Assembly: GCA_900315255.1 (NCBI GenBank)
Contig: OMYH01000024.1
Span: 740 to 64,739, forward strand
Direction of reading: 5' to 3'
Source of the DNA: an uncultured Eubacteriales bacterium
Lineage (GTDB): Bacteria; Bacillota; Clostridia; Oscillospirales; Acutalibacteraceae
DNA: 64,000 bases
Numbering within the stretch: position 1 is the stretch's first letter; the number at the start of each line of letters is the position of its first letter. The notes beneath the pieces were generated by a model. That model saw only the letters and a program-made list of their open reading frames with translations. It did not search any database and was not told where the DNA came from. Made by a program: the position numbers and the translations under genes. Below are positions 4,501 through 64,000 of the stretch, piece by piece.

Positions 4501-5157
4501 ACTCTTCGTCTGACAAGCAACCAAAGGATACGCGGTAGCTTAGATAAGGAATATAAGGCTTTTAATGAATACGAAAACAGATTCAAGATGATAGACGCTC
4601 TGTCAAAATATATCCGTGCGAGAACCGCAGACGGCGCAGATATCGGAAAGGTATCTCTGGAAACATTTGTACTGGGTCGATATTTAGACAGAATACTCAA
4701 ATTCGCTAATGAAAGATTATCCGTCATGACAAACGGACAATATGAGCTTAAACGCCGAGAGGAAGCCGAAAACAACCGTTCTCAAACAGGGCTTGATCTT
4801 GACATTCTTGATCACTACAATGAAACACAGAGAAGCATCTCCTCCCTCTCGGGCGGCGAGTCCTTCAAAGCAAGTCTTGCGCTTGCTCTCGGTCTATCCG
4901 ACGAGATACAGCATTCACAGGGCGGCATCACTCTCGACACCATGTTTGTTGACGAGGGCTTCGGTTCACTCGACGACGAGTCCCTTCAAAGCGCACTCCG
5001 AATGCTTATGGAGCTGACGGGTGAATCCGACGATTCACACAAAGGCAGACTTATCGGCATCATCTCTCACGTCAGTGATCTCAAAAATAAAATCGACAAA
5101 CAGATCGTCGTTACAAAAGACAGAGATAACGGAAGCAAGGCAACTATTGTCATCTAA
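1558..5157 (+). CDS. sbcC: SbcC/Rad50-family ATPase with long coiled coil and CxxC zinc hook
   Basis: Walker A GDTGAGKTT is at the N-terminus. A long K/E-rich coiled coil carries a central zinc hook (PCPVCGS). The C-terminus has the signature LSGGESF and Walker B FVDEGFGSLD. Confidence 0.9.
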   Translation: MRPIKLTMTAFGPYSGTVTVNMDELGTHGLYLITGDTGAGKTTIFDAITYALYGETSGSKDNKSRTAKMMRSKYAGKSVETSVELTFEYRGKIYKITRKPDQEVQSKRDPDKLVTRTSKVELILPDPGALPMTKDKDVTKAITDIIGLDKNQFCQIAMIAQGEFMKLIKADTTERQKIYRHIFKTELYDELATRVKDDRSEAKKVRDDQENIIKNMLSEIQAPSDYGRIDVINKIKEDNFSENNKLDSLDELIEYDRRLREDSEKQEKELENQKEVQSKKIDKVKAAHETKQQLDDNNKLLSDKQVTLNEKTEELDKEQQQNEYFKKLRNDTTLLENSLADYDSMESYAKESSILTANIENENNRLSLLDQTKTSKEETLGIKKTELQSETLQGLDVKLESLNNESNKLYDEDKKLNELAQGYNEITGEEKTLARLKDSFITALDDCVAAKAKYAGELAGFADYQKEMLTLMQQQTADKENRVKNKEARLDSLSNAGERLIKAENQIAEVKAHIEKIGRLSLDKKYLDSLYKDIKASEFYLQESLQTAKNANRAYADAYELFLNNQAGQLAKELKDNTPCPVCGSLSHPRIALLPDHAPDKNKVDKLKATADKAESEREQREKQRDTLQATYNEKLSALNDAAKELFGEEYSFEKFDSYVSAKTEQLDRNMQACSMELDNARADNDLRKKLAEEIKSDKDKIEAEKNENSKLREAIAKYEEQSKNTRSEFDEFIHETAPRDLAKLNITHNIDDSFTIIRTTKLPSSQKAENSLRSYTSSFNDTEDKIRAIEQLKHTFVEKGSDQLGNDFTLENAPLKISDNLKGMQDRIRIVNQNKEDVTGKIKIKEDLDRYIEQLTKDIENCKNSINVINNKLTEFRTKKTHCDEEYKKLKEKLKYETKAEVKQTIELNSGLITQHDKKLNDLNSEVQTVRDEISTLNGTIRQLEESFDESYLLDIEEQYHILTDIEHALKECRESLNDVTLRLTSNQRIRGSLDKEYKAFNEYENRFKMIDALSKYIRARTADGADIGKVSLETFVLGRYLDRILKFANERLSVMTNGQYELKRREEAENNRSQTGLDLDILDHYNETQRSISSLSGGESFKASLALALGLSDEIQHSQGGITLDTMFVDEGFGSLDDESLQSALRMLMELTGESDDSHKGRLIGIISHVSDLKNKIDKQIVVTKDRDNGSKATIVI

Positions 5158-5217: not shown

Positions 5218-5314
5218 TTAAGGAGACACTGATTAAATCGAGTGCCGAAGTTGCGCCGTCAGATTTTTAGGCAAATTGTGCGAAAAATCCGCAGGAATAC
5301 TGACGTATTTCAAG
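5218..5314 (+). mobile_element. MITE-like repeat copy 1: arm A only (97 bp), ending at the central motif GACGTATTTCAAG
   Basis: Nearly identical to the arm A portions of 16281..16377 and 40400..40496. It starts TTAAGGAGACACTGATTAAATC. No arm B or right terminal repeat follows. Confidence 0.85.
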
Positions 5315-6611: not shown

Positions 6612-6756
6612 TTTTAATCACCATTCCGTTTATTATTATTACCGACATACGGTTACTATTATTTTACACCCAAATCATAAAGAATGCAATGTGTTTAAAT
6701 ATATTTTATCAGATTTTTCCCTTAATATTGTAAAAAACATTTTTTTATGGTAAGAT

Positions 6757-6853
6757 TTTAGGAGACGCTGATTAAATCGAGTGCCTATATTGCGAAGTCA
6801 GATTTTTAGGCAAATTAGTTGAAAAATTCGCAGGAATACTGACGTATTTCAAG
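6757..6853 (+). mobile_element. MITE-like repeat copy 2: diverged arm A only
   Basis: It aligns over its full length with copy 1 (TTTAGGAGACGCTGATTAAATCGAGTGCCTATATTGCGAAGTCAGATTTTTAGGCAAATTAGTTGAAAAATTCGCAGGAATACTGACGTATTTCAAG) with about a dozen substitutions. It ends at the same central motif. Confidence 0.75.
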
Positions 6854-6884
6854 AATTTTTATCAATACGAAAGAATGTGATATT

Positions 6885-11300: not shown

Positions 11301-13410
11301 ATTCGGTCGCAGTATTGTAGCTTCTTATAAACTCACCGTCAAGATAATATACATTTCCTTTATGCGCCCAAGTACCGTCCCTGTAATATGCACCTAATCG
11401 GGCATCTGAATAATCATAGTGTCCATTAATCTCTGTAGACATCATCATCACTTGATTAACGACATTATACGGTGTACCTTTTTCTTTGTTTTGCAACATA
11501 TCAAGCGGAAAACTGATTTGATACCCATCATAAGTATCTTCTATTATCTCGTCTGTGTTCTTTTTCACTCCGCTTTCAAAATCGCCGTACTTTGCATAGG
11601 CTGCAGCATCTGTATGAACCCATGTGCCTTTGACTCCTATACTTTCAGTATATGGAAGGAATGATTTAACTGAAATTTTGTCAGCATTATCAAAATCAGG
11701 CATATATGACTCGTTGCCAATAACGTTAAAGCCACACTCGTTAACAATCTCAAGGTATTTATTCATTAGCTCATAGTTATTACTCTTAAAGTCCAGTACA
11801 ATCTTTAAGGGAGAGTAAACATTAGTTTGATTGTAATAACGCCAACCACCGTTTTTATAAGAAGAACTTCTGACAGATCCTGTTCCGCCAAATTCAGCAT
11901 ATGTGTTTATTCTACCTCGATTGCCTGCAATACTTCGAATATCCCGGATGAAACCTGAACTAGTTCCTGTTTCATCCGGGATACTGGAATCATCATAAAC
12001 CCTTGTCCAGTTTGTGCTATAGTATAGTTGAATTCCATTCGATAAGTACCCGCTATTCCAGCCACCAACAGAATCCACACTATATTCAAAGCCTAATTCA
12101 TTGCTAGTACTGTTATAGTATTGATTATTGAAAGTAGCTTGAGCAGCTTTCGTTTCAAAGGAGTCACTAGAAAGCGCCTGCAGTTTGTCTAAGAAATTGC
12201 TGATATTTTCGTTAGAAGTTTCCCCACTTAGATCTACTGTAATCCTAAAAGGATTCGCAACAGAATAAGGATATAAATAAACATACTCCCAAGAATTATT
12301 AGAAAGATAGGACTTAACAGCATCATATCTACAATCGCTTTTATCTATCTCATTTCTAATGTTAATAGTATAATCTGTTCCCGGTATTCTCGTTAACCCA
12401 ATATTCTCCAATACATATCCGTTATCTATTAGGTCAAGCATCAACTCGTTACCGCCTGAATACGAAAATCTTTGTGCTGATTCAAGCATCCAGCCGCCGT
12501 TATTGTAGAACAACTCGTCAGGCAAGCTGACTAATTTTCCGTTAATCACTGCAACCCTGCCATAGCACATATGAAGTTGGTCCGGAGAATCAGCATGCTC
12601 TTGAAGCAATTGTGCTAAAATGTGTAGATCTTCTTCTGTTTCTTTAATACCTGATACACTTGTAACAGAACTATTATAATACTTGGTATAATCAAAATCG
12701 AATACTCTGCCTAAATCAGATGATCCATCTGACACCGCTTCAAGAGGTCTGTCAAAATCAACACTTGATTTTGTATTGAAAACAATATTATCGCCTACAC
12801 GGGTCTGTACTAGTTCTGTCATCTCTGACATCGTATTCATAGGAAGAACCACATTGTTATCACTGTCAATATCAACATAAAACCTGTTCGTCGTTGCTGA
12901 GCCTTTAGTTAGTTCAAATATAGCATTATCTATTTCAAGCATTGAATCGCTGTCTATATTTGTGCTGTGCGCAAGCTTAACGATAAGTGAACATAACGTT
13001 TGACTAATATTGCCTAATGTTGAAGTAATACTATAAAGTGCACCCGTTGTATAAAAGCTATATTGTATTTTTTCTATTTCCTTGTAGCTTTCATTATACT
13101 GGCTGGCAAAATATGTTTTATTGTCATTTACATACTCTGTATTATTCTCTCTTGCAGTATAATCTCCGTTTTCCAAATAGGTAAAAACATTATCTTCAAC
13201 CAATCCAACAACCTGAGAGTCAGAAGTGCCGTCAGAATAATTAATATTTACCTTAAATGAAGCTCGACGAAGCGAATAAACAACATCAGAAACAGAAGAT
13301 CGTCCCAACTTATAGGAGACTGCATCTTTGAGAGTAGAGCAATGTTGATATTCAGTGCCTCCCCAATTATTTTGATATGATACATATTCGTCAAACGAAC
13401 AAATAACCAT
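8341..13410 (-). CDS. Surface protein body: novel N-terminal region, about 8 DUF11/CARDB-like repeats, Thr/Pro/Glu-rich stalk and an LPXTG-like sorting signal (PVKTG + TM + RKREE)
   Basis: Repeated TN(T/D/K)G(D/N)T.LTNVVV motifs are typical of the DUF11 conserved repeat domain. The C-terminus is DPVKTGDSRNAIGYAVAMLTALFVFAVCRKREEDQF. There is no signal peptide at its own N-terminus. Confidence 0.8.
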   Translation of the reverse strand: MVICSFDEYVSYQNNWGGTEYQHCSTLKDAVSYKLGRSSVSDVVYSLRRASFKVNINYSDGTSDSQVVGLVEDNVFTYLENGDYTARENNTEYVNDNKTYFASQYNESYKEIEKIQYSFYTTGALYSITSTLGNISQTLCSLIVKLAHSTNIDSDSMLEIDNAIFELTKGSATTNRFYVDIDSDNNVVLPMNTMSEMTELVQTRVGDNIVFNTKSSVDFDRPLEAVSDGSSDLGRVFDFDYTKYYNSSVTSVSGIKETEEDLHILAQLLQEHADSPDQLHMCYGRVAVINGKLVSLPDELFYNNGGWMLESAQRFSYSGGNELMLDLIDNGYVLENIGLTRIPGTDYTINIRNEIDKSDCRYDAVKSYLSNNSWEYVYLYPYSVANPFRITVDLSGETSNENISNFLDKLQALSSDSFETKAAQATFNNQYYNSTSNELGFEYSVDSVGGWNSGYLSNGIQLYYSTNWTRVYDDSSIPDETGTSSGFIRDIRSIAGNRGRINTYAEFGGTGSVRSSSYKNGGWRYYNQTNVYSPLKIVLDFKSNNYELMNKYLEIVNECGFNVIGNESYMPDFDNADKISVKSFLPYTESIGVKGTWVHTDAAAYAKYGDFESGVKKNTDEIIEDTYDGYQISFPLDMLQNKEKGTPYNVVNQVMMMSTEINGHYDYSDARLGAYYRDGTWAHKGNVYYLDGEFIRSYNTATEYDSQYSMREVSQNNSSYILSGEKGLLRHTEYKWGEVVLASRPDPVEDLAFDKNTFKLTFTKPVDEGFVVETSDTPERETTKKDDVVYVNSYTIKVVNDQDEVTYETTIARDQKFDDVTFVVPENAVDYSSRKNKIVVYCTNILGDSVEREIEFELTPAVEITMTPDKPLYKDSETVVYTETVKNTGETKLTNVVVNQDLIGQYVPQDGLTAMGTTAKIPDLKPGESYTFYFKVPTSVAVDDIIINNADVETAQNVSYDDTCTVNVYRVESQDTPKPAEYDIKVSTTYEKKVYNDLEDIVFIDVVTNTGDTTLTNVVVREAFTKGGYTDVADGTLNKNGSVTIDKLEPGESVTLLYTINAKDAPIAEDGTVINNLTATADEGVSDDDSTLVEVVHYSINVTKLVDNQNYRKGDNVVFTNIVTNDGNTKLTNIKVTEDLDGTFTLTNGAVIMNDHIMIAELAPGESYTYYYVVPANDENVADGRVTSVVTATASEDSIAESSDKVSATDTNFALIIDPEIEVTKTVDGRTYKIGETVVWTDTITNKGDVPLTNVVVTESIDGTFDVEYETDGSSFTIPKLDVGESYTFTFSTVVTNENISDFIHTTTVKAAAAEGVSDNDTKDVPVNAAAIKVVKTVTEYEYTPDGTIIYTDIITNTGDTALTEVIVKEDLPGKFISYDPKYTADGDTLTIDRIEKGQTVVVKYEVKVSDVDYSTEDPTITSTVTAEAKEGVKDDDSVDVIVIIPDPEPVSEDSEPVSENVEPDTTTDIEPEVEKDSEPDTTTDVIVPETTTDTESVSETDSDNTKIEGGTVEKDSEPEITTDTNTTTDTTVPESETDTTVVPETNPDTTVVPETNPDTTVVPETNPDTTVVPEPETDTTVVPEPTTDTTSETPSDTPTTDTSQTQIGGGTAEKKDSDTPKTETDNKQNTTPTTTTTVVNNPIPQQSGGGSADPVKTGDSRNAIGYAVAMLTALFVFAVCRKREEDQF
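8660..8819. repeat. 30-bp coding tandem repeat (about 5 copies) encoding (TTVVPETNPD)n in the stalk of the surface protein
   Basis: The unit GGAACTACCGTCGTATC(C/G)GGGTTCGT(C/T)TCG repeats head to tail at 8660, 8690, 8720, 8750 and 8780. Confidence 0.85.
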
Positions 13411-13435
13411 ATCAAAATCTCTGACAATACGATAA

Positions 13436-13574
13436 TTAAGGAACCACTGATTAAATCACGTCCTTCGGACTGAGCACCAAATTTGCTTGCATCTTTTTGT
13501 CAAATTGCACTCAAAATCCTTGAAATACGTCGACGGTGCAACTTCGGCACTCGATTTAATCAGTGTCTCCTTAA
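13436..13574 (-). mobile_element. MITE-like repeat copy 3 (139 bp): arm B plus the terminal 43 nt of arm A, inserted inside the surface protein gene
   Basis: It starts TTAAGGAACCACTGATTAAATC and ends GATTTAATCAGTGTCTCCTTAA. It differs from copy 5 (18671..18811) by a 2-nt indel and one substitution at the internal junction. Confidence 0.9.
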
Positions 13575-13917
13575 TGTTACCAGTGAAATTCAGACCAATA
13601 ACATCATCGTTATATTCATAAGTTATACTTTGAATATCCTGGATTTTAAGATCGGTCATCTCGTCATTAAAAATCATATTGAAAACTTTAGTGTTTACAT
13701 TAGAATCATAGTGAACATTGCCTTTATAATAGCTACTAACGTTATTGTCGTAAATGCCGCTATAGACTAATGCCGGTACATTCACCACCTTCGGTAAATG
13801 ACTGTCTTCCTCTGCGCTTGCCGACAGTACCAAAACGCTCATCATCATACTCGTCAAAAGCATAACAATAAGCACGAATGCCAGCGACCGCTTACATTCT
13901 CTTCTAATGCTGTCCAT
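13456..13917 (-). CDS. N-terminal fragment of the surface protein (signal peptide plus about 110 aa) ending in a repeat-encoded tail
   Basis: The signal-like N-terminus is KRSLAFVLIVMLLTSMMMSVLVLSASAEE. The last 41 residues (KETLIKSSAEVAPSTYFKDFECNLTKRCKQIWCSVRRT...) are translated from repeat copy 3. Confidence 0.7.
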   Translation of the reverse strand: MDSIRRECKRSLAFVLIVMLLTSMMMSVLVLSASAEEDSHLPKVVNVPALVYSGIYDNNVSSYYKGNVHYDSNVNTKVFNMIFNDEMTDLKIQDIQSITYEYNDDVIGLNFTGNIKETLIKSSAEVAPSTYFKDFECNLTKRCKQIWCSVRRT

Positions 13918-16280: not shown

Positions 16281-16395
16281 TTAAGGAGACACTGATTAAA
16301 TCGAGTGCCGAAGTTGCGCCGTCAGATTTTTAGGCAAATTGTGCGAAAAATCCGCAGGAATACTGACGTATTTCAAGTAATAAGTGGTTCCTTAA
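16281..16395 (+). mobile_element. MITE-like repeat copy 4 (115 bp): full arm A, a TAATAA joint, and only the terminal 12 nt of arm B
   Basis: TTAAGGAGACACTG...GACGTATTTCAAG TAATAA GTGGTTCCTTAA. Arm A is identical or nearly identical to copy 1. Confidence 0.9.
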
Positions 16396-16469: not shown

Positions 16470-16496
16470 TTAGCACTCAAAGATAGAGAGTGCTAA
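16470..16496 (+). promoter_or_regulatory. CIRCE operator (HrcA binding site)
   Basis: TTAGCACTC-AAAGATAGA-GAGTGCTAA is a perfect match to the consensus TTAGCACTC-N9-GAGTGCTAA. It lies 34 nt upstream of the groES start. Confidence 0.95.
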
Positions 16497-16814
<318 letters not shown>

Positions 16815-18522: not shown

Positions 18523-18670
18523 TAAGGACGCCCGTACGCCAATATTACCCATCCTTGCTCTATTTTGATTTTGACCTGAAACTCGCAACCACTTGCATAG
18601 TATAGCATACTCTATTATAGTTATTGCCAAAGATGACACAACAAAACGTGATTCATAACAATTTTCAATT

Positions 18671-18811
18671 TTAAGGAACCACTGATTAAATCACGTCCTT
18701 CGGACTGAGCACCAAATTTGCTTGCATCTTTTTGTCAAATTGCACTCAAAATCCTTGAAATACGTCCTGACGGCGCAACTTCGGCACTCGATTTAATCAG
18801 TGTCTCCTTAA
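18671..18811 (-). mobile_element. MITE-like repeat copy 5 (141 bp): arm B plus the terminal 45 nt of arm A
   Basis: It has the same architecture as copy 3. It sits between the groEL terminator and the 3' end of the HD-domain gene. Confidence 0.9.
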
Positions 18812-18878: not shown

Positions 18879-19370
18879 TTATATAATTATATTCTCGTTT
18901 TTAAGGTCATCTGCCCAATAGCACTCGTTTTTTGCACTGCAGCAAAAGCACATTCGTGAAAGCTTATCCGCCCTGTACAACAGCGCACCGAGCGATCTGT
19001 CTGTATCGTCTGCAGGTGTTCGGTGTTCGCTTATTGCCTTGCTTATAAGCTCCATTTCATCTGTACCATATCCGCACTGGATCAGAATATGCTTTGCTGT
19101 CCTCTCTCCTGCTATGTTGTGAGGAGTACCGTTTGTGTACTGCTCGTATCGTCCGATATCGTGCAGAAGCGCCGCCGCATAAATAATATCCTTGCTGTAC
19201 TCAAGAGTCTCTTCGAGCGTGATTATATACATTATCCTTGCGGTATCGAGCAAGTGAGCAATACCGTGGCGGCAGAATCTCCTGTCTTTTTCATATTCGT
19301 TTATACTGTCAAGCAGACTGATATAGTCGCCGTTTTCGATGATTCTGTTATATCTCCCGCCGCTTTTCAT
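18879..19370 (-). CDS. HD-domain metal-dependent phosphohydrolase, translationally coupled to folE
   Basis: The HD signature is AALLHDIGR, with upstream H residues (CRHGIAHLLD). I chose the start at Met41 of the track ORF. This ATG overlaps the folE TGA (sequence TGATG), and upstream of it the track ORF lies inside folE. Confidence 0.7.
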   Translation of the reverse strand: MKSGGRYNRIIENGDYISLLDSINEYEKDRRFCRHGIAHLLDTARIMYIITLEETLEYSKDIIYAAALLHDIGRYEQYTNGTPHNIAGERTAKHILIQCGYGTDEMELISKAISEHRTPADDTDRSLGALLYRADKLSRMCFCCSAKNECYWADDLKNENIII

Positions 19371-19924
19371 CAGGAACGCACCATATCCATAAACATACGC
19401 TGTTTGTCGTGATCGCCGGCAAAGCAGCCTCTTGCAGCATATGTAACCGTCTGACTTCCGGGCTTTTTGATCCCTCTCATTGACATACACATATGCTCTG
19501 CTTCAAGCATGACCATAACGCCCTTTGGAGCGAGATATTCCTCCAGAGCATTTGCGATCTGTGATGTAAGCTGCTCCTGTATCTGAGGACGTCTTGCATA
19601 GACCTCGACAGTCCTTGCAAGCTTGCTTAAACCTACTACCTTCCCATCTGGGATATATGCAATATGAGCTTTCCCGAAAAACGGCAGCAGATGATGCTCG
19701 CAGGTGGAATAAAACATAATATCCTTCACAAGAACAACATCGTTATTGTCAACGGTAAACTGCTTTGAGAGATGCTCCTCTGCTGTTTTGCCCATGCCGC
19801 CGTATATCTCCTCGCACATTCTCGCCACTCTGTCGGGAGTTTCGAGAAGACCTTCCCTGTTTACGTCTTCGCCTATTCCCTCCAGAAACATTTTTACCGC
19901 CTGTTTTATTTTATCGTAATCCAT
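19370..19924 (-). CDS. folE: GTP cyclohydrolase I (FolE type I)
   Basis: [36 protein letters not shown]..., [10 protein letters not shown], and RPQIQEQLT are all typical of FolE. I chose the start at Met43 of the track ORF. It has a GGGAGG RBS, and the upstream extension overlaps the riboswitch. Confidence 0.9.
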
Positions 19925-19979
19925 AAAAACGAACCTCCCGTGCAGATAGTCCGACAGCCGCACAAGAGGTATCCATGTA

Positions 19980-20074
19980 GCAGCGGAATGCAGCTGCGAA
20001 ATCGCAAGCAAAGCTTTTCGTCCTCCGACAACTTCCTGTTCGAAAGGCACTTAACGCTTCACAGCCTACTCTGC
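19980..20074 (-). promoter_or_regulatory. THF (tetrahydrofolate) riboswitch aptamer, class I, in the folE leader
   Basis: The reverse strand reads GCAGAGUAGGCUGUGAAGCGUUAAGUGCCUUUCGAACAGGAAGUUGUCGGAGGACGAAAAGCUUUGCUUGCGAUUUCGCAGCUGCAUUCCGCUGC. It contains the blocks I recall as conserved in THF-I aptamers (AGAGUAG, GCGUUAAGUG, GGA(A/U)GU..GUCG, ACGAA.GC, GCAU.CCGCU closing P1). The genomic context upstream of folE fits. Confidence 0.7.
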
Positions 20075-20287
20075 AATTATTATCTGTTAAAATTATAACA
20101 CACTCCGACAAAATAATCAACGGATTTACGTACAACTATTTCAAGTGTATTCTTTTATTATTGTGTATTGTGTAGAAATAAACTAAGAGTTTCAAATGCA
20201 TTTCCAAGCTGAAAACACAACGCTTGATTGAACCGTCGTCCCAAGCTGCGATCATGCGAGCATGCCAAGCTTAAAATCCTTGTTTAA

Positions 20288-33350: not shown

Positions 33351-34787
33351 ATGGAAGCAAAACAAATTCTTTCCGTATTTATGAGTATTGCAATGCTGTG
33401 TCCTGCATGTATACCTGCAAATGCGGATACAACAGACAAGGAAACCGGAAAAACCGCCATCTACTACTTTCTCGCCCCCGATAACCGGTTCGACACAACA
33501 AAGGGTGCAAAAAACGAGGACATAGGATCATTCAACCGGAACGAAGACATCACCATGAAACCGTGGCTAGGCACAAAGATTAAACTCTCTCCCGAAACCG
33601 GTTTAAATATCTATAAAATAGAAAATATCCCCACGGAGTATACAAATATCGTCTTTAATTCATATTTCAATGTAAACATAAGCTCGCTGACAGAAGACAG
33701 ACCTTATGCGTGCCAGACAGACGACCTGACCACCACAGGCTGCAAGACAGGCGAATGCCCTTATGACAAAACGCTGACCACCGACAGCTTTGACGGCTGG
33801 ATATATGTCTGCAACTTAAACGACATTTACGACAATCCTGCCAACGTAAACAGCTGCACAGGCGGAGCATGGTTCACGCTTGATAATTACAGAAGCAGCA
33901 GCGATTATTACGGCACTTACGGTCTGACAGAAGATACAGACACCGGAACTTACCCCGGAACATACGGCGACTATGAATATGATCTGAACTCCGACAATAC
34001 CGTCACCATCACGAGTTATTCCGGCAGCGACTCCTATGTTAACGTACCGGAAGAGATCGATGGCAGGAAGGTAACGTGTATCGGCGACGAAGCCTTCAAA
34101 AACAATACTGCTATTAAAAGCCTTGATCTCCCGAAAAGCGTCACAACAATAGGCAATTCTTCCTTTGAGAACTGCACCGGAATGAAGAGCATTTTGGGAC
34201 CCGGCTTAACAAGCATAGGCGAATCGTCTTTTGCGGGGTGCAGCGGTTTTAACGGTATGACGTTTTATTCATCCATGTCGGAAATGGGACGCTGCGCAAT
34301 GGCAAATTGCTCGGGACTGGAACACCTTGTGTTTAAAGAGGGCATGACCGAAATTCCTGAATATGTATTTTGGAACTGTACGAATGTAAAAACGCTTACC
34401 ATCCCCGAAAGTTTAACGACGATCGGAGAATCCGCATTCGGACAATGCGCGGGCATAACCGAAATAAGCTATGCCGGTTCGGAGTCACAGTGGAAGCAGA
34501 TCACAATCGAAAGCGGTAATGAGTCTTTGAAAAATGCGGTTGTACATTACGGCAAGACAACATCAGACGTGATCTGCGGCGACGTTGACGGCGACGGCAA
34601 GATCTCTGCAAAGGACAGTATGACAGTTCAGCGTCATGTCGTCAAGATCAAAAAGCTCGGCGATAGCTTGCTTGCTGCCGCAGATGTAAACGGTGACGAT
34701 AAGGTAACCAACAAAGACTCTCTCGAGATACTGAGATTTACTATAAAACTGTCCAACAACGACAGAATAGGCAAACCGACAGCCTGA
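33351..34787 (+). CDS. Secreted BspA-type leucine-rich-repeat protein with a C-terminal type I dockerin
   Basis: It has a signal peptide. LRR units of the BspA type are present (IGDEAFKNNTAIKSLDLPKSVTTIGNSSFENCTGM...). The dockerin has duplicated Ca-binding segments GDVDGDGKISAKDSMTVQR and ADVNGDDKVTNKDSLEILR. Confidence 0.8.
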   Translation: MEAKQILSVFMSIAMLCPACIPANADTTDKETGKTAIYYFLAPDNRFDTTKGAKNEDIGSFNRNEDITMKPWLGTKIKLSPETGLNIYKIENIPTEYTNIVFNSYFNVNISSLTEDRPYACQTDDLTTTGCKTGECPYDKTLTTDSFDGWIYVCNLNDIYDNPANVNSCTGGAWFTLDNYRSSSDYYGTYGLTEDTDTGTYPGTYGDYEYDLNSDNTVTITSYSGSDSYVNVPEEIDGRKVTCIGDEAFKNNTAIKSLDLPKSVTTIGNSSFENCTGMKSILGPGLTSIGESSFAGCSGFNGMTFYSSMSEMGRCAMANCSGLEHLVFKEGMTEIPEYVFWNCTNVKTLTIPESLTTIGESAFGQCAGITEISYAGSESQWKQITIESGNESLKNAVVHYGKTTSDVICGDVDGDGKISAKDSMTVQRHVVKIKKLGDSLLAAADVNGDDKVTNKDSLEILRFTIKLSNNDRIGKPTA

Positions 34788-39200: not shown

Positions 39201-40387
39201 CCGATCTCGACTGCGAGGTCACTGTTGACCCCTCGGGTATGGGCAGCATGATGTCAATGATGACGGGCGAAGGAATATCGATCAATGTTTTCTGCGACAA
39301 CTTTGACACTCTCCAGGAGGCTTCAACAATGATTGCCGACACACTGAACACAGTGGACGGAGCGCAGAACGCCTTCAACGGAATTGAAGACACCACACAG
39401 GAGCTTCGTATCAGCGTTGACAAAGAAAAGGCTATGAAAAAGGGGTTGACCGTTGCGCAGGTATTCATGGAAATTTCTGGCATGATGACAAGCGAAAAGC
39501 AGGCTACTCTGATTGAAACAGGCAGTGACAGTCTGACGGTACAGGTGGTAGATGGGGCGGCAAAGGGTCTGACGGAAAAAGACATCAGAAACCACATCAT
39601 CGAAACGACCGATATGAAGGGGGAAAAGATAACGGCAAAGCTGTCCGATATAGCCACGATCACAAAAGCAGACAGTCTGAACAATATTACAAGAATCGAT
39701 CAGAAGCGTTACCTCAATGTCACCGCAGATGTTGCCGAGGGCTTCAACTCAACGAATGTTGCAAATGCCGCAAAGACAGAAATAGATAAGCTCAATCTTC
39801 CCGATGGTGTAACATATGAGCTTACGGGATCGTACGAAACGACTATGGACGCAGTAATTCAGCTCGGAGAAATGCTCCTGCTTGCGGTAGCGTTCATCTA
39901 TCTGATAATGGTAGCGCAGTTCCAGTCGCTGCTGTCGCCGTTCATCATCATGTTCACTATCCCGCTTGCCTTCACGGGAGGATTTATCGCCCTGATAATA
40001 GCAGGACTTGACATGAGCGTTATTGCGATTATCGGATTTATTATGATGGCAGGAATAATTGTAAATAACGGTATCGTTCTTGTCGACTACATCAATCAGC
40101 TTCGTGCGGAGGGCATGGCAAAGCGAGAGGCGCTTATTGAAGCGGGCGTCACACGAATGCGGCCTATCTTCATGACGGCTCTCACAACGATCCTCGGTCT
40201 GTCGGTGATGGCATTCAGCCGTGATTCAAGCTCGGCTATGATGCAGCCTATTGCACTTGTATGTATAGGCGGACTTATCTACGCTACGATAATGACGCTG
40301 TTCGTCGTACCTGCAATATACGATATATTCAACAAAAAGGAAATCAGAGTTATAGATAAAAAAGAGCTTGAGATCTTAGACGATTGA
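36278..40387 (+). CDS. RND-superfamily efflux permease (AcrB/HAE-like) carrying an approximately 340-aa coiled-coil insertion in the first extracytoplasmic loop
   Basis: AcrB-like blocks lie at both ends: MLPKFSVRKPLTVFVAVVLVIVLG, LPYIIIVTTYIGASPEEVE, 12 predicted TMs, and GAIIASTLTTVAVFLPIVFV. Residues about 190-530 are heptad-like and rich in E, K, Q and L. No adjacent membrane-fusion protein gene is present. Confidence 0.8.
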   Translation: MLPKFSVRKPLTVFVAVVLVIVLGVVSYLNMTPSLFPSLELPYIIIVTTYIGASPEEVEATVTRPLEQTMATLDNVKEITSSSSENYSMVSIEFEDIVNMDTVTVDLNSKLTQLTGSWDEKVGAPYIMKINPNMLPVAIVAVSKSDSTIYELSDFTKDVLENKLEGINGVASVSVGGIVEQSVEVVLSENKIKSVNDTVQTAVKKQFADAEKELDDAKTQLEDGLEQAKTGKDDIEKGKELLDEQHNEIASQLSAAEAEISSKEKELLETKLTLVDTIADLTSQKEQLTTTLSVMKEVQKAMHSILDRRDDLQNDYDTLKALQDSYSALQSKDSELQTALSAIETDSTLSEDDRNKAVEEFKSSPEYTQTKASLAETEAQMNARGVTPLTIDITVRATKSALDLANSSLDTVNTAIKELGTSFETIDDDVQKLEDGLSQMDEAINTLSETIEQLDEGAVTIKEAKTELGTQKSQAEFQMTSAATDLKISENTVNSTITQLEQSQKELDEGVKQLNETKKDTLKQADITNTITMDMISQILTAQNFSMPAGYLTGEDENMLVRVGDKFSETDDLTNLLLVDLGIDDVDPIYLSDVADINLVDNSGEIYAKLNGDNGVMVSFTMQSTAATAEVSDNIHKALEKLSEEYPDLSFTFLMDQGDYIHLIVNSVLSNLIWGGLFAIIILLFFLRDIRPTFIIACSIPISVIFAIVLMYFSGITLNLISLSGLAVGVGMLVDNSVVVIENIYRLRNNGATPVQAAVSGAVQVTGAIIASTLTTVAVFLPIVFVHGLTRTLFQDMALTIGYSLLASLIVAISLVPAMAQGMLKKQKKNKKEKGESKLFKGYRKLASFTLDHKVLLILGSIVLLVGSAYLSLKMGFSYMPSMESTQISVNVTMPDDADFESATKTTDEILKRLDTVEDINTVGAVVGSNVLSSISIGGGGGDDTSVSLYVILNDEDKLTRPISEICTEMEEKCSDLDCEVTVDPSGMGSMMSMMTGEGISINVFCDNFDTLQEASTMIADTLNTVDGAQNAFNGIEDTTQELRISVDKEKAMKKGLTVAQVFMEISGMMTSEKQATLIETGSDSLTVQVVDGAAKGLTEKDIRNHIIETTDMKGEKITAKLSDIATITKADSLNNITRIDQKRYLNVTADVAEGFNSTNVANAAKTEIDKLNLPDGVTYELTGSYETTMDAVIQLGEMLLLAVAFIYLIMVAQFQSLLSPFIIMFTIPLAFTGGFIALIIAGLDMSVIAIIGFIMMAGIIVNNGIVLVDYINQLRAEGMAKREALIEAGVTRMRPIFMTALTTILGLSVMAFSRDSSSAMMQPIALVCIGGLIYATIMTLFVVPAIYDIFNKKEIRVIDKKELEILDD

Positions 40388-40399
40388 TTAATAAGTGAA

Positions 40400-40559
40400 T
40401 TAAGGAGACACTGATTAAATTGAGCGCCGAAGTTGCGCCGTCAGGTTTTTAGGCAAATTGTGCGAAAAATCCGCAGGAATACTGACGTATTTCAAGGATT
40501 TTGAGTGCAATTTGACAGTGCGGGTCTCCGGTGGAGACCTCTGCTCAGTGGTTCCTTAA
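40400..40559 (+). mobile_element. MITE-like repeat copy 6 (160 bp): the most complete copy, with both terminal inverted repeats and a variant arm B
   Basis: It comprises arm A (97 nt, 3 substitutions), the centre GATTTTGAGTGCAATTTGACA, a unique GC hairpin segment GTGCGGGTCTCCGGTGGAGACCTCTGCTCA, and the terminus GTGGTTCCTTAA. It sits at the convergent junction between the RND gene and ispE. Confidence 0.9.
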
Positions 40560-40603
40560 TTATTCCCCGAACTGCAATGAAGCAATTCGGGGAATTTGTT
40601 TTA

Positions 40604-41449
40604 TCACAAATTTTCTGCCAGAAATACATCTCTGTATTTCGTCTTAAAGAAATCTCTGCAAGCCTCTGCTTTTCTTTTATCCTCAAACACAGCATACACT
40701 GTCGATCCGCTGCCAGTCATCACAGCACCGAGTGAACCGTCACATTCAAGCAGCTTTGACTTCAATTCAAGCAAAGGTTCATTGTGAAGCGTTTCTTCAA
40801 AATCGTTGCGAAGATTTTTGCCTATCAGCCGTACATTGTCAAGGCATTCAAGCATTCTGTCTGTCGCACAATACCCCCTCGGTTCTGCGCTGTCGACCGC
40901 CTCGAAAGCTTCTTTTGTAGATACACCGAACGGCGGCTTTACAAGCACAAAATACATATGCGGCACGGGCTTTAATCGGGTCAGGATCGTTCCCGTACCC
41001 TCCCCGAGAGCCGTTCCGCCCATTATACAAAACGGTACGTCTGCGCCTATTTTTCCCCCGAGAACATACATATCATCATCACTCAAGGGCATATCGTACA
41101 TCTCGTTTAATCCTTTAAGCACCGCCGCACCGTCTGCCGAACCGCCAGCAAGTCCTGCCTGTGTGGGAATCCTTTTCTGTATATCAATATGCAGACCTCT
41201 GTTATCACACCCTGTTTTTTCAAAGAACAGCAAAGCGCACTTCACGGCAATATTACTCTCGTCACACGGTACATCTGGATGTTCGCAGCTTACCGTTACT
41301 TTTCCGGAATCATTCGTGCAAAGTGTTACCGTATCACAAAGACTGACCGTCTGCATAACGGTTTTCACCTCGTGATAGCCGTCTGCCCTCTTTCCTGTTA
41401 TATCAAATGTCAGATTTATCTTTGCATATCCTTTAACCTGTATTTCCAT
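40604..41449 (-). CDS. ispE: 4-diphosphocytidyl-2-C-methyl-D-erythritol kinase
   Basis: The GHMP kinase motif IPTQAGLAGGSADGAA is present. The N-terminus is typical of IspE (KINLTFDITGKRADGYHEV). Confidence 0.9.
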   Translation of the reverse strand: MEIQVKGYAKINLTFDITGKRADGYHEVKTVMQTVSLCDTVTLCTNDSGKVTVSCEHPDVPCDESNIAVKCALLFFEKTGCDNRGLHIDIQKRIPTQAGLAGGSADGAAVLKGLNEMYDMPLSDDDMYVLGGKIGADVPFCIMGGTALGEGTGTILTRLKPVPHMYFVLVKPPFGVSTKEAFEAVDSAEPRGYCATDRMLECLDNVRLIGKNLRNDFEETLHNEPLLELKSKLLECDGSLGAVMTGSGSTVYAVFEDKRKAEACRDFFKTKYRDVFLAENL

Positions 41450-56811: not shown

Positions 56812-56874
56812 AAATACAAGAAAACACTCCTTATATTCGCCCGGGAATGACGGTGTAAGGAGTGTTTTAGTTAT

Positions 56875-56969
56875 TTAAGGAACCACTGATTAAATCACGT
56901 CCTTCGGACTGAGCACCAAATTTGCTTGCATCTTTTTGTCAAATTGCACTCAAAATCCTTGAAATACGT
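56875..56969 (-). mobile_element. MITE-like repeat copy 7: arm B only (95 bp), ending at the central motif
   Basis: TTAAGGAACCACTGATTAAATCACGTCCTTCGGACTGAGCACC...CCTTGAAATACGT is identical to arm B of copies 3 and 5. No arm A follows. The kinase/LRR coding sequence abuts the centre. Confidence 0.9.
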
Positions 56970-59900
56970 TTCCGAACCGGTGTAACATACAGCTGTTAAA
57001 TCTGTACATTGATAAAAAGCAGCATATCCGATATCTGTCACACTTTTCGATATTTCCACCAATGTCAGAGAATCACAATACATAAAAGAATAACTGCCAA
57101 TATTCGTAACATTTTTAGAAATAACTACCTTTTCTAAATAAGTGGAACCTCGAAAAGCACTCAGGTCTATTTCTTTCACACTATCCGGAATAATGTAAGT
57201 CTTGTCATTTTTCGACTGAGGATAAAGAATCAATTTACTCATATCTTTGTTAAACAAAACCTCGTCCTTAGACGAATAATACTTGTTTTGACTGTCAACA
57301 TCTATGCTTGTTAATTTGGAACAGCGATTAAAAGCATATCTCCCTATACTAACCACATTACCCGGAATATTGACTGCCGAAAAGCCATCACATTCAGCAA
57401 ATGCACTCGATTCAATGCTCGTCAGTTTTGCAGAGAACGTTATGTCTATCAGATTATCGCAATCAAAAAACGCACAATAACCTATTTCAGTAACACTATC
57501 GGGCATTTTATATGCTGACAACGGGTTTCCGGCTGGATATGCCATTAAAATTGTCTTATCTTTATTGAACAATACACCGTCTTGAGAAGAATAGTACTTG
57601 TTTTTGTTGTCGACATCTATGCTTTTTATGCTTTTGCAATCACAAAACATACCATCGGCAATCTCAGCAATATTCGCCGGAACTGTAAACTTTTCCGCTT
57701 TTTTTCCTGCAGGATATGCTATCAGTTCAGTCATGTTTTTATCATACAATACTCCGTCTTCAGATTTATATGATTTATTATTGCTGTCGACTTTTATTTC
57801 CGATAGATTATCGCATTCCCTAAATACACCCGATCCAATATATGTAACATTCGCAGGGATATTTACGTTAGTTAAACCGTTGCAATAGCAAAAAGCGTTA
57901 GAAAGAATTGTTGTTACACTTTCGGGAATTTCAAGGCTTGATAAGCTTATACATGAATTGAATGAGTCACTGCAAATTGTTCGAACACTGTCGGCTATTT
58001 CTATATCAGATAAGTTTGTAAACCAACTAAACGCACCTGCTCCAATGCTCTTTACTCCATATTCAACAACGACCTTTTTCACATTGTTTTCGTAACTAAC
58101 ATAACCGGAATTTGAACCCAAAGAAGCATCATAATCCCACATATATCCTTTTCCGTAAATGTACAGCGTACCGCTCTCGTAAAATGCCCACTTTACATTA
58201 TCGGATGGTCCCGATTCGCTTTCATTATCATAGTACTCATTACTCTGTCCGCAGTTGCCCTCTGCAATCAGCTTTGTTTTTTCTTTTTCACGCGGCGACG
58301 GCGGTATATCGGTGTCGATCTCATCGTCTTCTTCCGAATAATAGTCTTCCACCCAATATTCGGAGTCGTCCCAATAGCTCTCACTGTCTTCATACATAAA
58401 CCAATATTCATCAGTATATCTGTCTGTCTCGCTTTCTTCTTCGAAACTTTCTTCACCGGCATAGGAATTAGTTCGGGAATTGGATTTTTTGATAATATAA
58501 CTGATATAATCAATATCCGAATCATAAACCTCGTCTTTATATGGTTGTGTATCCGTGATATATATCCCGATACCGACAACCATCGAAACAATAATAACAA
58601 CCGCCGCAAGCCACAATATAACAATTCCTGTTTGTCTTGTCATAAACTTAGTCTTTGCTCGTTCGTTCTTGTTCAACACCTCAATCTCAAACACTCCCGG
58701 CTCACGCTTTGCAGCTTTTGGAGTTATCGTTTCATTATTATCGAACATCTCGTCATCAGGATCGATCTCCACAAAGATGTTATCCGTTGCTCCGGGTATC
58801 CCCGACAGCGTTGTGTATGTCTTAGGTTTAGTTTCCGGTTTGATCGCCGTTTCAGGTATCACGGAAAACGCTGTCTGCAACTTCTGCTTGAATTCTTTAA
58901 CAGGCAAAACTGTCTGTGACTTCGGCTTCGGCAAAGGTTCGCTTTTCTGCTTCGGTTCTTCGACAGGCAAAGCTGTCTGCGACTTCGGCATCTGCAAGGG
59001 TTCGCTTTTCTGCTTCGGTTCTTCGACAGGCAAAGCTGTCTGCGACTTCGGCTTCGGCAGAGTTTCGCTTTTCTGCTTTGGTTCTTCGACAGGCAAAGCT
59101 GTCTGTGACTTTGGCTTTGGCAGAGATTCTCTTTTCTCCTTCGGCTGTTCAACAGGCATAGATATCTGTGATTTAGGCTTTGGTAACGGTTCGCTTTTCT
59201 GCTTCGGTTCTTCAACAGGCAGTGCTATCAGTGATTTAGGCTTTGGTAACGGTTCGCTTTTCTCCTTCGGCTCTTCAACAGGCATAGATATCTGTGACTT
59301 TGGCTTTGGCAGAGATTCACTCTTCTCCTTCTGCTCTTCAACAGGCAGTGCTATCAGTGATTTAGGCTTTGGTAACGGTTCGCTCTTCTCCTTCGGCTGT
59401 TCAACAGACATAGATATCTGTGATTTAGGCTTTGGTAACGGTTCGCTCTTCTCCTTCTGCTCTTCAACAGGCAGTGCTATCTGTGATTTAGGCTTTGGTA
59501 ACGGTTCGCTTTTCTCCTTCTGCTCTTCAACAGGCATAGATATCTGTGACTTAGGCTTCGGGTCTTCATTAGGCAATACCGTCTGAGACCTCGGCTTTGA
59601 CAGTGGTTCGCTCTTATTTTTTTGTTTTTCGATAAATGAAATATATGACCGATGATTGCGTTTTATCTTCTCGACACTCTCGATCCTCTCGTCCTGCAGC
59701 AGTGCCGATTTGAACTCGCCCATCGTCTGAAAACGGTCAGCAGATCTTATACTTAACGCCTTCAGAATTGCGTCTTCTTTAGACTTCGAAATATTAATCC
59801 CCAGCTCATGCGGCGGAACAAGCTCATCATCTTCGATCCTTTCAAACGAATCGGGGGGACGCATTCCCGCTATCGCAAAATAAAACGTAGCTCCCAAACT

Positions 59901-60569
59901 GTACACATCGGTATATGGTCCCTGCTTGCTCTTTCGGGAATATTGCTCCTTGGGGGCAAAACCGGGCTTGAGAATAATATCAAGACTCCTGCTCTTGTCA
60001 CCAAGACTGTACCTTGCTGCACCAAAATCAAGCAGAATGACCTTCCCGTTCCTCTTGATACAAATATTGTCGGGCGTTACATCACGATGTATTATTCCCT
60101 TTTTGTGTACCGAAGCAAGTGCGTCCATCACTGGTACTACTACTCTTTGAGCGTCCATGACGCTGATTCTTCCACCCTGCTGCTTGATGAAGACATCAAA
60201 GCTCATCCCTTCGATGTAATCCATAACAAAATATGCCGTTCCGTTTTCTTCAAAGTAGCTATAGATGCGAACAACTCCGCTGTTATCAATGAATCTTGCA
60301 AGTGTTTCGGCCTCTTTCAAAAAGAGTTTTCTGCCATAGAGATAATTCTCCCCACGCTCGCCGGGATAAGGAAAAACATAATTGCTTTTTCTATAAGATA
60401 ATGTTTCAGGAAAGTATTCTTTTATTGCAAAAATCCTTCCGCTTTTATATTCCCTAACTTTGTATGTAATGCCGAATCCGCCCTGTCCGAGAGTGTTTTG
60501 AATAATATACTGCCCCGCAAGAATAGTTCCGTTCGGTAACGCAAAAGGAAAAGTTTCATTTATAGCCAT
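56895..60569 (-). CDS. Hanks-type Ser/Thr protein kinase, 21-aa repeat linker, single TM, acidic segment and extracellular BspA-type LRR domain; the C-terminal 24 aa come from repeat copy 7
   Basis: Kinase motifs GQGGFG, FAIKEY, HRDVTPDN and DFGAAR are present. About 11 repeats of KSEPLPKPKSQ(I/T)ALPVEE(P/Q)K(Q/E) follow. The TM is GIVILWLAAVVIIVSMVVGIGIYI. LRR units (SIGAGAFSWFTNLSDIEIADSVRTICSDSFNSC...) resemble those of the protein at 33351..34787. Confidence 0.85.
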   Translation of the reverse strand: MAINETFPFALPNGTILAGQYIIQNTLGQGGFGITYKVREYKSGRIFAIKEYFPETLSYRKSNYVFPYPGERGENYLYGRKLFLKEAETLARFIDNSGVVRIYSYFEENGTAYFVMDYIEGMSFDVFIKQQGGRISVMDAQRVVVPVMDALASVHKKGIIHRDVTPDNICIKRNGKVILLDFGAARYSLGDKSRSLDIILKPGFAPKEQYSRKSKQGPYTDVYSLGATFYFAIAGMRPPDSFERIEDDELVPPHELGINISKSKEDAILKALSIRSADRFQTMGEFKSALLQDERIESVEKIKRNHRSYISFIEKQKNKSEPLSKPRSQTVLPNEDPKPKSQISMPVEEQKEKSEPLPKPKSQIALPVEEQKEKSEPLPKPKSQISMSVEQPKEKSEPLPKPKSLIALPVEEQKEKSESLPKPKSQISMPVEEPKEKSEPLPKPKSLIALPVEEPKQKSEPLPKPKSQISMPVEQPKEKRESLPKPKSQTALPVEEPKQKSETLPKPKSQTALPVEEPKQKSEPLQMPKSQTALPVEEPKQKSEPLPKPKSQTVLPVKEFKQKLQTAFSVIPETAIKPETKPKTYTTLSGIPGATDNIFVEIDPDDEMFDNNETITPKAAKREPGVFEIEVLNKNERAKTKFMTRQTGIVILWLAAVVIIVSMVVGIGIYITDTQPYKDEVYDSDIDYISYIIKKSNSRTNSYAGEESFEEESETDRYTDEYWFMYEDSESYWDDSEYWVEDYYSEEDDEIDTDIPPSPREKEKTKLIAEGNCGQSNEYYDNESESGPSDNVKWAFYESGTLYIYGKGYMWDYDASLGSNSGYVSYENNVKKVVVEYGVKSIGAGAFSWFTNLSDIEIADSVRTICSDSFNSCISLSSLEIPESVTTILSNAFCYCNGLTNVNIPANVTYIGSGVFRECDNLSEIKVDSNNKSYKSEDGVLYDKNMTELIAYPAGKKAEKFTVPANIAEIADGMFCDCKSIKSIDVDNKNKYYSSQDGVLFNKDKTILMAYPAGNPLSAYKMPDSVTEIGYCAFFDCDNLIDITFSAKLTSIESSAFAECDGFSAVNIPGNVVSIGRYAFNRCSKLTSIDVDSQNKYYSSKDEVLFNKDMSKLILYPQSKNDKTYIIPDSVKEIDLSAFRGSTYLEKVVISKNVTNIGSYSFMYCDSLTLVEISKSVTDIGYAAFYQCTDLTAVCYTGSETYFKDFECNLTKRCKQIWCSVRRT
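58890..59625. repeat. 63-bp coding tandem repeat array (about 11.5 units) in the kinase juxtamembrane linker
   Basis: On the plus strand, units such as CTTCGGTTCTTCGACAGGCAAAGCTGTCTGCGACTTCGGCTTCGGCAGAGTTTCGCTTTTCTG recur head to tail with subfamily variation. Confidence 0.9.
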
Positions 60570-63779: not shown

Positions 63780-64000
63780 CTTCGTGACTTATTATAACAT
63801 ATTATTCGGATGAATGTGTGAACGTGAAGGTAATTTTTGGGGTAGGATCAAGAAAACGTGTATTCCTATTACATTAAACAAAAAGCGAGCGGCGACATCG
63901 AAGTTTGTTATAATACAGCAAATCGAAGAGTTGTGAAGATATGCTTTTGAATGGGACGATCGGAAAAACATAATTAATACTAATCTCAAATAAGAATCTT

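Follow-up and report, generated by a model that had tools for sequence, protein, structure and literature searches.

Kinase-LRR gene and its assembled 3' end

The window, meaning the whole stretch of 64,000 nucleotides analysed here (part of contig OMYH01000024.1, from an uncultured Eubacteriales bacterium), carries on its minus strand an open reading frame (ORF) of 1224 amino acids (56895..60569) with Pkinase and LRR_5 domains. SbcCD is also encoded in the window, at 429-5157. As assembled, the kinase-LRR protein ends with ...AVCYTGSE followed by TYFKDFECNLTKRCKQIWCSVRRT and the stop codon and, as an earlier note on this DNA had recognized, these final 24 residues derive from a single repeat arm. 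They correspond to 56969..56898, within a 95-nt arm (56875..56969, minus strand) that represents positions 86-180 of an element of 180 nt, supplies both the tail and the stop codon, and is 100% identical to positions 8629-8723 of contig L001, while its identity with the arms at 13436-13531 and 18671-18766 of the window ranges from 97 to 100%. We also confirmed that the ORF 13456..13917 and the kinase-LRR ORF have identical terminal 24 residues, and that the paralog at 33351..34787 goes on with ...SYAGSESQWKQITIESGNESLKNAVVHYG and then with a Dockerin_1 domain. Just outside the element, the hairpin AAAACACTCCTTA...TAAGGAGTGTTTT (56821..56868), read from the sequence and unchanged in a sister contig, is probably the terminator of the kinase gene.

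The native kinase-LRR allele, present in other assemblies of the same strain, encodes a protein of 1228 amino acids without a dockerin, the C terminus of which is ...GSEKEWKKVTVGANNESLTSAVMHYDSNINI. In particular, the protein P0001 is 100% identical to that of the window through ...GSE and then continues with KEWKKVTVGANNESLTSAVMHYDSNINI, the native LRR-cap C terminus of 28 residues, and the same ending occurs in the other members of its cluster. In L001, the intact gene, its TGA stop codon, the full 180-nt element, the same terminator, and a tRNA follow one another in this order, and in the other assemblies the native stop codon directly adjoins a complete element. The window lacks 172 nt compared to the sister contigs, namely, 87 nt of the gene and element positions 1-85, and the resulting junction (56969..56970), which reads GGAA/ACGT on the minus strand (motif GGAA/ACGTATTTCAAG; sequence across 56969/56970, ...CCGGTTCGGAAACGTATTTCAAGG...), has 1 nt of microhomology and is likely to be a false scaffold join.

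It follows that, compared to the native allele, the ORF is indeed interrupted within the LRR cap motif, directly behind ...CYTGSE, as the earlier note had proposed, but that the cut removed neither a dockerin nor additional LRRs, since the native tail comprises only 28 residues. The replacement of the gene end through insertion of the repeat is ruled out by the other assemblies, which all show the complete element beyond an intact stop codon. Slippage between direct repeats was considered as well and rejected, since the junction microhomology amounts to 0-1 nt and a nearby AGGAAT repeat predicts a different product.

Altered copies of the repeat in the window

The window contains seven copies of the element, all of which are altered, each in its own way. 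Besides the kinase copy, four lie on the plus strand. The copy at 5218..5314, where 95 nt are absent, retains the A arm only (positions 1-97) and is fused to a DUF4097 ORF, which thereby measures 267 amino acids versus 245 in the native version; its end corresponds exactly to 5215 + 99. A further A-arm-only copy (6757..6859, positions 1-103) lies upstream of a UDG gene; about 140 nt of the long-variant element are missing there. At 16281..16395, the A arm (positions 1-97) is joined to 18 nt from the B terminus, with 65 nt absent and 16377 equal to 16278 + 99 exactly, and at 40400..40559 the A arm is joined to part of a long-variant B arm through a putative internal false join (40544/40545), where 40544 lies exactly 99 nt beyond the last copy-specific base, 40445. 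The two remaining copies, on the minus strand, are short forms of the element, lacking 41 nt (element positions 44-84) at 13436..13574 and 39 nt (element positions 46-84) at 18671..18811. At the former site, the native ORF has 131 residues and ends with ...SSAEVAPSDF, and the window version (13456..13917) has 153; the latter owes the 24-residue tail that it shares with the kinase-LRR ORF to the 41-nt deletion, which is of the same kind as that of the kinase copy.

A common break point had been attributed to the single-arm copies, and the copy at 6755 had been described as ending at 6853/6854. Neither statement holds, since the family similarity of that copy reaches 6859, six bases beyond the 12-mer ACGTATTTCAAG, and since the A-only end lies 3' of this 12-mer (97/98), while the kinase copy begins 5' of it (85/86). 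What the three single-arm copies share is the 12-mer, not one break point.

Features of the element

The element is a real MITE-like hairpin repeat that measures about 180 nt, or about 240 nt in its long variants. It is noncoding, ranges from 160 to 245 nt in size, and occurs in at least nine copies in about 100 kb of the strain. Both ends carry terminal inverted repeats, TTAAGGA(G/A)(A/C)CACTGATTAAATC, and 47 full copies, which come from many genera, show them conserved. When folded, the full element forms a single long hairpin (dG of -41.9 kcal/mol as DNA; z = -9.4), and with this fold and seven copies in the window, the repeat is far beyond chance. RNAalifold, applied to 36 family members, recovered the terminal and apical stems only, the alignment across subfamilies being poor.

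Duplication of a TTAA target is shown by contig L137, where a single TTAA (empty site) corresponds to TTAA-element-TTAA in the other contigs. Moreover, removal of the element and one TTAA from the 13436..13574 locus restores an ORF of 1813 amino acids; the insertion at this site is real and splits a surface-protein gene of that size. In other genomes, the flanks are nonpalindromic direct repeats. The 4-bp flanking duplications of the element are TTAA, CTAG, TTTA, TAAA, or TAAG.

The element is widespread in gut and rumen Firmicutes, both Clostridia and Dialister (Negativicutes), and is apparently undescribed. Rfam gave no match at the gathering or E-value threshold and only chance hairpin matches below it, the plasmid collection gave none, and a literature search with the inverted-repeat sequence retrieved only BRAF primers. 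A protein search with two repeat-encoded tails, covering cluster representatives only, yielded one weak match. An autonomous partner with matching ends was not found. The IS630-like element beside the window was rejected as a parent, its ends (CTAATCTCTAATTAAAC...) and TA duplication not matching, and a candidate autonomous copy (L027) proved to be a pair of short elements separated by unrelated ORFs, with no transposase in between.

Comparison with other assemblies of the strain

The sister assemblies represent the same strain in other rumen metagenomes: their contigs show 0 mismatches with the window over 9915, 7032, 5314, 2846, 1545, and 6677 nt (about 33 kb), the differences being located solely at the elements. 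Each of the window alleles (1224, 267, and 153 amino acids) is confined to a single contig, the source contig of 65,997 nt, and the native alleles occur on 6 to 15 contigs, Logan and NCBI records among them. Exact look-ups returned no separate contig with any of the window alleles, and no such allele appeared in Logan or in the other assemblies. Scans of the JGI metagenomes, a collection that does not include the strain, found neither the deleted nor the native kinase junction.

The alterations follow the type of assembly. Eighteen of the 20 copies in contigs named 'scaffold_N' (IDBA-UD style) are altered, each uniquely, and none of the approximately 18 copies in the STEW18/19 reassemblies and in the k141 MEGAHIT contigs is, all of them being complete (Fisher's exact test: p ~1e-8 per copy, where copies are nonindependent, and ~0.02 per assembly). 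All the copies seen in two 'scaffold_N' assemblies are altered, six in ERZ1061835, all by deletion, and five in ERZ920183, by four deletions and one N-gap. No two of the altered structures in the window and in these two assemblies are alike, each being private to one assembly. Two copies are intact in a further IDBA-style scaffold, ERZ1052864. In contig L122, a run of 33 Ns bears CTTGAAATACGTCA on both sides; element positions 84 and 97 mark the contig ends there, and the duplicated 14-mer beside the N run covers element positions 84-97.

Position of the junctions

For four of the seven junctions in the window, the distance from the last copy-specific base is exactly 99 nt (k-1, with k = 100), and three junctions in other scaffolds match this rule exactly. 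Furthermore, a simulation with k = 100 on full-element contigs predicted ends at CAAG/G (offset 97), at /AAATTCTTG, and at CTTGAAA/TACGT (offset 152), which coincide with observed junctions; the contig start AAATTCTTG is the junction of the 6757..6859 copy. In the long-variant elements, the breaks are at offsets 145 and 152, where the rule places them. The B-side junctions (56969, 13531, and 18766) stop 2-4 nt before the end that the known copies predict, and they fit the rule only if further copies share 3-4 flank bases; the fetched loci contained no such copy. For the kinase junction, 56969 equals 56870 + 99, within the k-1 limit set by the known copies; the flank that an exact fit would require in another copy, TTAT/TTAAGGAACC, was not found among the fetched loci. 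Some deletions in other IDBA-style scaffolds depart from the simple rule, e.g., those of L129 at the 13433 locus and of L136. Microhomology at the junctions is limited to 0-1 nt, except for 3 nt in one case, and the end points are scattered over element positions 82-86, 90/91, 97-99, 103, 145, and 152.

Origin of the half elements

Within this project, those rumen assemblies that were built from single samples were made with IDBA-UD (Stewart et al. 2019, PMC6785717). From these methods and from the behavior shared with the 'scaffold_N' contigs, we infer that IDBA-UD also made the source contig. The default maximum k of this program is 100. A de Bruijn assembler with this limit would be unable to bridge a repeat of 180 nt, and therefore each unique flank would give a contig running k-1 = 99 nt past the last copy-specific base, so that flank contigs would end near element position 97 from either side. 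The two would overlap by only about 14 nt (TGACGTATTTCAAG), too short a stretch for merging in the graph, and would be joined by the scaffolder on the basis of read pairs. A positive distance estimate would then leave an N-gap with a duplicated overlap, and a negative one would leave one contig whole and trim the other by that estimate; this is the presumed behavior of IDBA at the joins of the window. Such a trimmed join would mimic a deletion, having one end at the center of the repeat and the other anywhere, here 87 nt inside the gene.

Thus, the half element and the truncated kinase gene are very probably a scaffolding artifact at a real multicopy hairpin repeat rather than the product of a recombination hotspot, a reading that draws on the sequences of the window and of the sister contigs. 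The "central motif" at which the earlier note had placed a recurrent recombination or cleavage hotspot corresponds to the 14 nt shared by two contigs that each extend 97 nt into the repeat of 180 nt, and the breaks that had suggested the hotspot are better explained by contig ends lying 99 nt inside the element at k = 100 and misjoined at scaffolding: they follow the 99-nt rule, offsets 145 and 152 included, and the altered alleles are absent from all other assemblies of the strain.

We regard as improbable a real deletion in vivo, in which the extruded hairpin or cruciform would be cut near the apical loop by a nuclease such as SbcCD, and the end would be resected and rejoined without homology, with removal of one arm and the adjacent DNA and remodeling of the 3' end of the gene. 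The kinase junction, at element positions 85/86, does coincide with the predicted apex, the apical loop TGAC occupying positions 84-87, and most of the 16 scored deletions break between positions 82 and 104, with three exceptions, namely, L129 at the 13433 locus, L136, and the 40398 copy of the window. A Dialister MAG assembled with SPAdes (L108) contains two copies that are truncated at the apex of the hairpin, indicating that such truncations may also arise in vivo, and shorter symmetric forms of the element exist in other genomes, one isolate included. However, 0 of about 18 copies are altered in the non-IDBA assemblies of the strain, each deletion is private to one assembly despite 0 SNPs in the flanks over 33 kb, the junctions fall at the 99-nt limit to the base, offsets 145 and 152 are not predicted by the apex, and the N-gap of L122 places contig ends at exactly these positions. 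Nor does the pattern correspond to a palindromic fragile site, since the non-IDBA assemblies of the strain show no breaks and the breaks are not tied to the apex. If the half copies were real, apex breaks in a clonal rumen strain would outpace point mutations, with different arm-plus-flank deletions in each animal, a prospect to which we give little credence; the 3' ends of neighboring genes would then be rewritten, and the 99-nt agreement would mean that only such alleles assemble.

The retained repeat blocks, all of at most 97 nt or of about 103 nt, are what k = 100 can bridge, and L137, another IDBA-style scaffold, contains an assembled empty-site allele that appears to be genuine. Both observations would suit real minority deletion alleles in each rumen sample, favored by an assembler that resolves a repeat of less than 100 nt at k = 100 and not the full element. 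This is nevertheless very improbable, since many distinct rare deletions would be needed, with ends lying by chance exactly k-1 from copy-specific bases and junctions without microhomology, and none is on record in Logan or in other assemblies. A site-specific recombinase acting at the core ACGTATTTCAAG, crossing full elements with pseudosites to leave hybrid half sites like attL/attR, would account for the 12-mer kept in all single-arm copies, but it is barely conceivable: the scatter of the end points, which do not fall at one position, largely refutes it, the partner sequences have no common core (homology of 0-1 nt), and neither reciprocal products nor a recombinase gene beside the elements were seen.

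Taking the scaffolding artifact as the preferred reading, three protein records, the 1224-residue kinase-LRR protein, the 267-residue DUF4097 protein, and the 153-residue ORF, would have false, repeat-encoded C termini. The main value of the case lies in caution, as the same false signal would appear in any survey of truncated repeats, decaying genes, or "hotspots" that used MAGs obtained with a fixed-k assembler and scaffolding. Its signature would be breaks k-1 bases into a repeat, clustered centrally when the repeat is slightly shorter than 2k. The interest of the element itself, a hairpin repeat that targets TTAA, inserts right at stop codons, and splits a large surface-protein gene, is modest.

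Comparison with known systems

IDBA-UD has been reported to show prominent local assembly errors and to insert Ns despite an overlap (Chen et al. 2020, Genome Res, PMC7111523). The case of the window resembles the errors reported there in that a consensus at a repeat is unsupported by any other assembly and in that protein-coding sequences in public databases are corrupted, and L122 resembles them in that Ns were placed although the flanking contigs overlap. Different from our case, that paper does not contain deletions ending k-1 into a repeat, and the trimming mechanism is our own proposal.

With regard to the element, RUP and BOX of Streptococcus pneumoniae and ERIC/IRU of enterobacteria are likewise small, noncoding, multicopy, hairpin forming, and intergenic, and some are modular, but they share no sequence similarity with it. 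RUP is tied to an IS630-type element and a TA target, whereas the IS630-like neighbor of the present element has unrelated ends. A further resemblance is to MITEs mobilized by IS5-group transposases, with a 4-bp duplication at YTAR, as the duplications of the present element are mostly YTAR-like. YTAR is the target preference of the IS5 group, and it is this preference that suggests a possible link to IS5. Correia elements (CREE/NEMIS) of Neisseria measure about 100-160 bp, have terminal inverted repeats and hairpin potential over the whole element, and occur in many copies. The present element is similar to them in its terminal inverted repeats, hairpin, copy number, and location at gene ends by terminators, as well as in having size classes that differ by an internal segment and in being able to supply stop codons or alter gene 3' ends. 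However, Correia elements duplicate TA, have other inverted repeats, of 26 bp, and reside in a proteobacterial host, whereas the present element duplicates TTAA and is found in Clostridia and Negativicutes.

The kinase-LRR gene and its native allele

The kinase-LRR ORF (56895..60569, minus strand, 1224 aa) encodes, in order, an N-terminal Pkinase domain, a proline/lysine-rich linker of 21-aa tandem repeats, a membrane segment, and BspA-type LRR_5 repeats. The linker (58756-59622) consists of about ten or more tandem 63-nt units, which encode the repeat …PKPKSQ..LPVEE.K.KSE… and are identical in the sister contig. As the earlier note had stated, the tail of the ORF is repeat encoded: the protein ends …AVCYTGSE-TYFKDFECNLTKRCKQIWCSVRRT*, with its final 24 codons lying within a 95-nt repeat arm (56875-56969), ORF 13456..13917 has the identical 24-residue ending, and the paralog 33351..34787 continues as …YAGSESQWKQITIESGNESLKNAVVHYG, followed by a dockerin.

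A protein search retrieved the native allele P0001 (1228 aa, encoded on the sister contig L001), which is 100% identical through …CYTGSE and then ends KEWKKVTVGANNESLTSAVMHYDSNINI, with the same C-terminal end in three more cluster members, namely, those reaching the C terminus. L001 shows zero mismatches to the window on both flanks of the kinase junction, and between these flanks it carries the final 28 codons with their TGA stop and, immediately 3', a complete 180-nt element (TTAAGGAG…CTG-ACGTATTTCAAGG…GGTTCCTTAA); the terminator hairpin and the tRNA-Met beyond it are the same ones as in the window. The 172 nt missing from the window comprise 87 nt of the gene plus element positions 1 to 85, with a junction ambiguity of 1 nt. 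The window kinase locus therefore differs from the native one by a deletion-like change; repeat insertion into the gene is ruled out by the full element after an intact TGA, and no dockerin was lost, the native end being only 28 codons long.

In their native form, the elements lie directly at stop codons: TTAAGG immediately follows the kinase TGA (L001, 8541-8547), and the DUF4097 stop codon TAA is supplied by the element's own TTAA in …GCG ATT TAA GG (contig L119, about 11305-11313).

Identification of a MITE-like element

Species-representative genomes were scanned with the terminal repeat of the element, and matches were found in Ruminococcus, Oscillospiraceae, Acutalibacteraceae, Dialister, and other gut and rumen genomes, with facing end pairs mostly spaced by 167 or 179 to 180 nt. 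The ends are almost invariant across subfamilies, and the apical stem stays paired where both partners have changed, with 8 to 10 of 36 sequences showing GC or CG in place of AU.

At the 40398 locus (window 40387-40604), the contig of a strain differing from that of the window by 2 SNPs in 3.6 kb (L137, 2020-2160) presents an empty site, AATAATTAATTCACTT, with a single TTAA, an insertion polymorphism that shows the TTAA target duplication. The copy at 13436-13574 splits a surface-protein gene into ORFs of 131 and 1689 aa (window 8341-13917, minus strand; L119, 2514-8131). This insertion is real and present in all assemblies. Deleting the element together with one TTAA restored an uninterrupted reading frame of 1813 aa, which comprises a signal peptide, DUF11/DUF7507 repeats, and an anchor at the C terminus. 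Several copies in other genomes have the nonpalindromic direct flanks TTTA, TAAA, or TAAG. Taken together, the empty site, the restored ORF, and the direct flanks show that the element is MITE-like and duplicates 4 bp of its target.

No family was found in Rfam and no match in a plasmid search, and no autonomous partner was found, including the IS630-like element next to the window. The latter (L001, 1-1450, just past window position 64000; HTH_33 and DDE_3 in two ORFs) has the ends CTAATCTC… and a TA duplication and is inserted into another copy of the repeat, at its degenerate end, beside a long-variant copy; it was rejected as the parent, as its ends differ from those of the repeat. Mini-palindromes of 30 to 50 nt, consisting of two joined terminal repeats (AAGGAAACACTGATTAAATCAGCGTTTCC), occur in the Oribacterium sp. 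WCC10 isolate (L053, 2180-2216) and also at loci L043, L085, and L109.

Shortened copies and their distribution among assemblies

The seven window copies lie at 5218-5314, 6757-6859, 13436-13574, 16281-16395, 18671-18811, 40400-40559, and 56875-56969. Half-copy ends had been claimed at 5314 and 6853; the former stands, and the copy at 6755 instead extends to 6859. Just past the copy at 16281-16395, upstream of groES/groEL, there is a CIRCE-like inverted repeat (TTAGCACTC-N9-GAGTGCTAA, about 16470-16500), and a THF (tetrahydrofolate) riboswitch (80.6 bits; 19979-20075, minus strand) lies upstream of ORF 19370-20050.

Sister contigs for the remaining copies, fetched via neighboring proteins, contain full elements where the window shows half or short ones. 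Besides the kinase locus, the window lacks 95 nt at the DUF4097 locus (native protein, 245 aa; window, 267 aa), about 140 nt upstream of UDG (a long-variant element), 41 nt at the 13433 locus (native ORF, 131 aa), 65 nt at 16279, and 39 nt at 18668, while the 40398 locus has an internal join between 40544 and 40545. Outside the elements, there are 0 mismatches between these contigs and the window over about 33 kb. The three window protein alleles are confined to the 65,997-nt source contig, whereas the native alleles occur in 6 to 15 contigs (ENA, NCBI, and Logan).

In this rumen project, IDBA-UD was used to assemble single samples (PMC6785717). Contigs are also named scaffold_N in two further assemblies, which have different deletions at the same loci: 19, 44, 35, 25, and 48 nt in ERZ1061835, which has a further one at the 40398 locus, and 35, 31, 80, and 20 nt in ERZ920183, which also has an N-gap. 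All of the about 18 complete copies in the STEW18/19 reassemblies and k141 MEGAHIT contigs are full length. Altered copies thus number 18 of 20 in scaffold_N assemblies versus 0 of 18 in the others (Fisher's exact test, about 1e-8 per copy, copies not being independent, and about 0.02 per assembly). Each deletion is private to one of the compared assemblies; in a clone with no SNPs over 33 kb, this is hard to reconcile with inheritance.

N-gaps fall midcopy in UBA metagenome-assembled genomes (MAGs) from other pipelines (L057, about 718-968; L100, about 2170-2230), suggesting that this element breaks assemblies in general. In two MEGAHIT contigs (L121, about 9600-9680; L132, about 3040-3130), the gene neighborhood switches exactly at an element copy, through either a chimeric join or a real rearrangement between copies.

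Origin of the junctions

Contigs of a de Bruijn graph that come from unique sequence extend k-1 nt past the last copy-specific base, that is, 99 nt at k=100, the default end point of IDBA-UD. Contig ends simulated at k=100 on the full-element contigs matched the observed junctions exactly: the A-side end follows …ACGTATTTCAAG (offset 97) at the DUF4097, 16279, and 18668 loci, the end at UDG precedes AAATTCTTG, and that of long variants falls between CTTGAAA and TACGT (offset 152). Direct counting agrees (5314 = 5215 + 99; 16377 = 16278 + 99), and the internal join at 40544 lies 99 nt beyond the last private SNP of that copy, 40445. The kinase junction is 56969 = 56870 + 99, and, judged from the known copies, it and two other B-side junctions lie 2 to 4 nt inside the limit; other genomic copies sharing a few flank bases would fit this shortfall, and none were found in the fetched loci.

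The earlier note had proposed a recombination or cleavage hotspot at the palindrome center. The full element does form one long hairpin (DNA dG, -41.9 kcal/mol; z = -9.4), with its apical loop (positions 84 to 87) at the same place as the kinase junction, and a SPAdes-assembled Dialister MAG (sp. UMGS543, L108) carries two apex-truncated copies. These (761-845 and 2790-2906) start or resume at the identical apex position, immediately before CGAGCTATGTAAGG, one being a solo right arm and the other joining left-arm positions 1 to 31 to the apex. However, real breakage at the apex leaves unexplained the offsets 145 and 152, the confinement of deletions to one assembler, and the privacy of each event, and we regard it as very improbable. 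The sequence facts of the earlier note stand; its biological reading, a hotspot and a lost C-terminal domain, is not supported. Most likely, an assembly artifact at a real repeat produced what is seen at 56875-56990.

Where contigs extend 97 nt into a 180-nt repeat from either side, the two extensions share 14 nt, TGACGTATTTCAAG, a stretch that contains the 12-mer previously called the central motif. If the distance estimated from read pairs is negative, IDBA probably trims the next contig by that amount, the overlap being unchecked. Such trimming would leave one end fixed and the other arbitrary, with zero microhomology, matching what was observed. In scaffold L122, contig ends are directly visible, with 33 Ns and the 14-mer on both sides; "Ns inserted despite overlap" is an IDBA-UD error type described by Chen et al. 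(PMC7111523).
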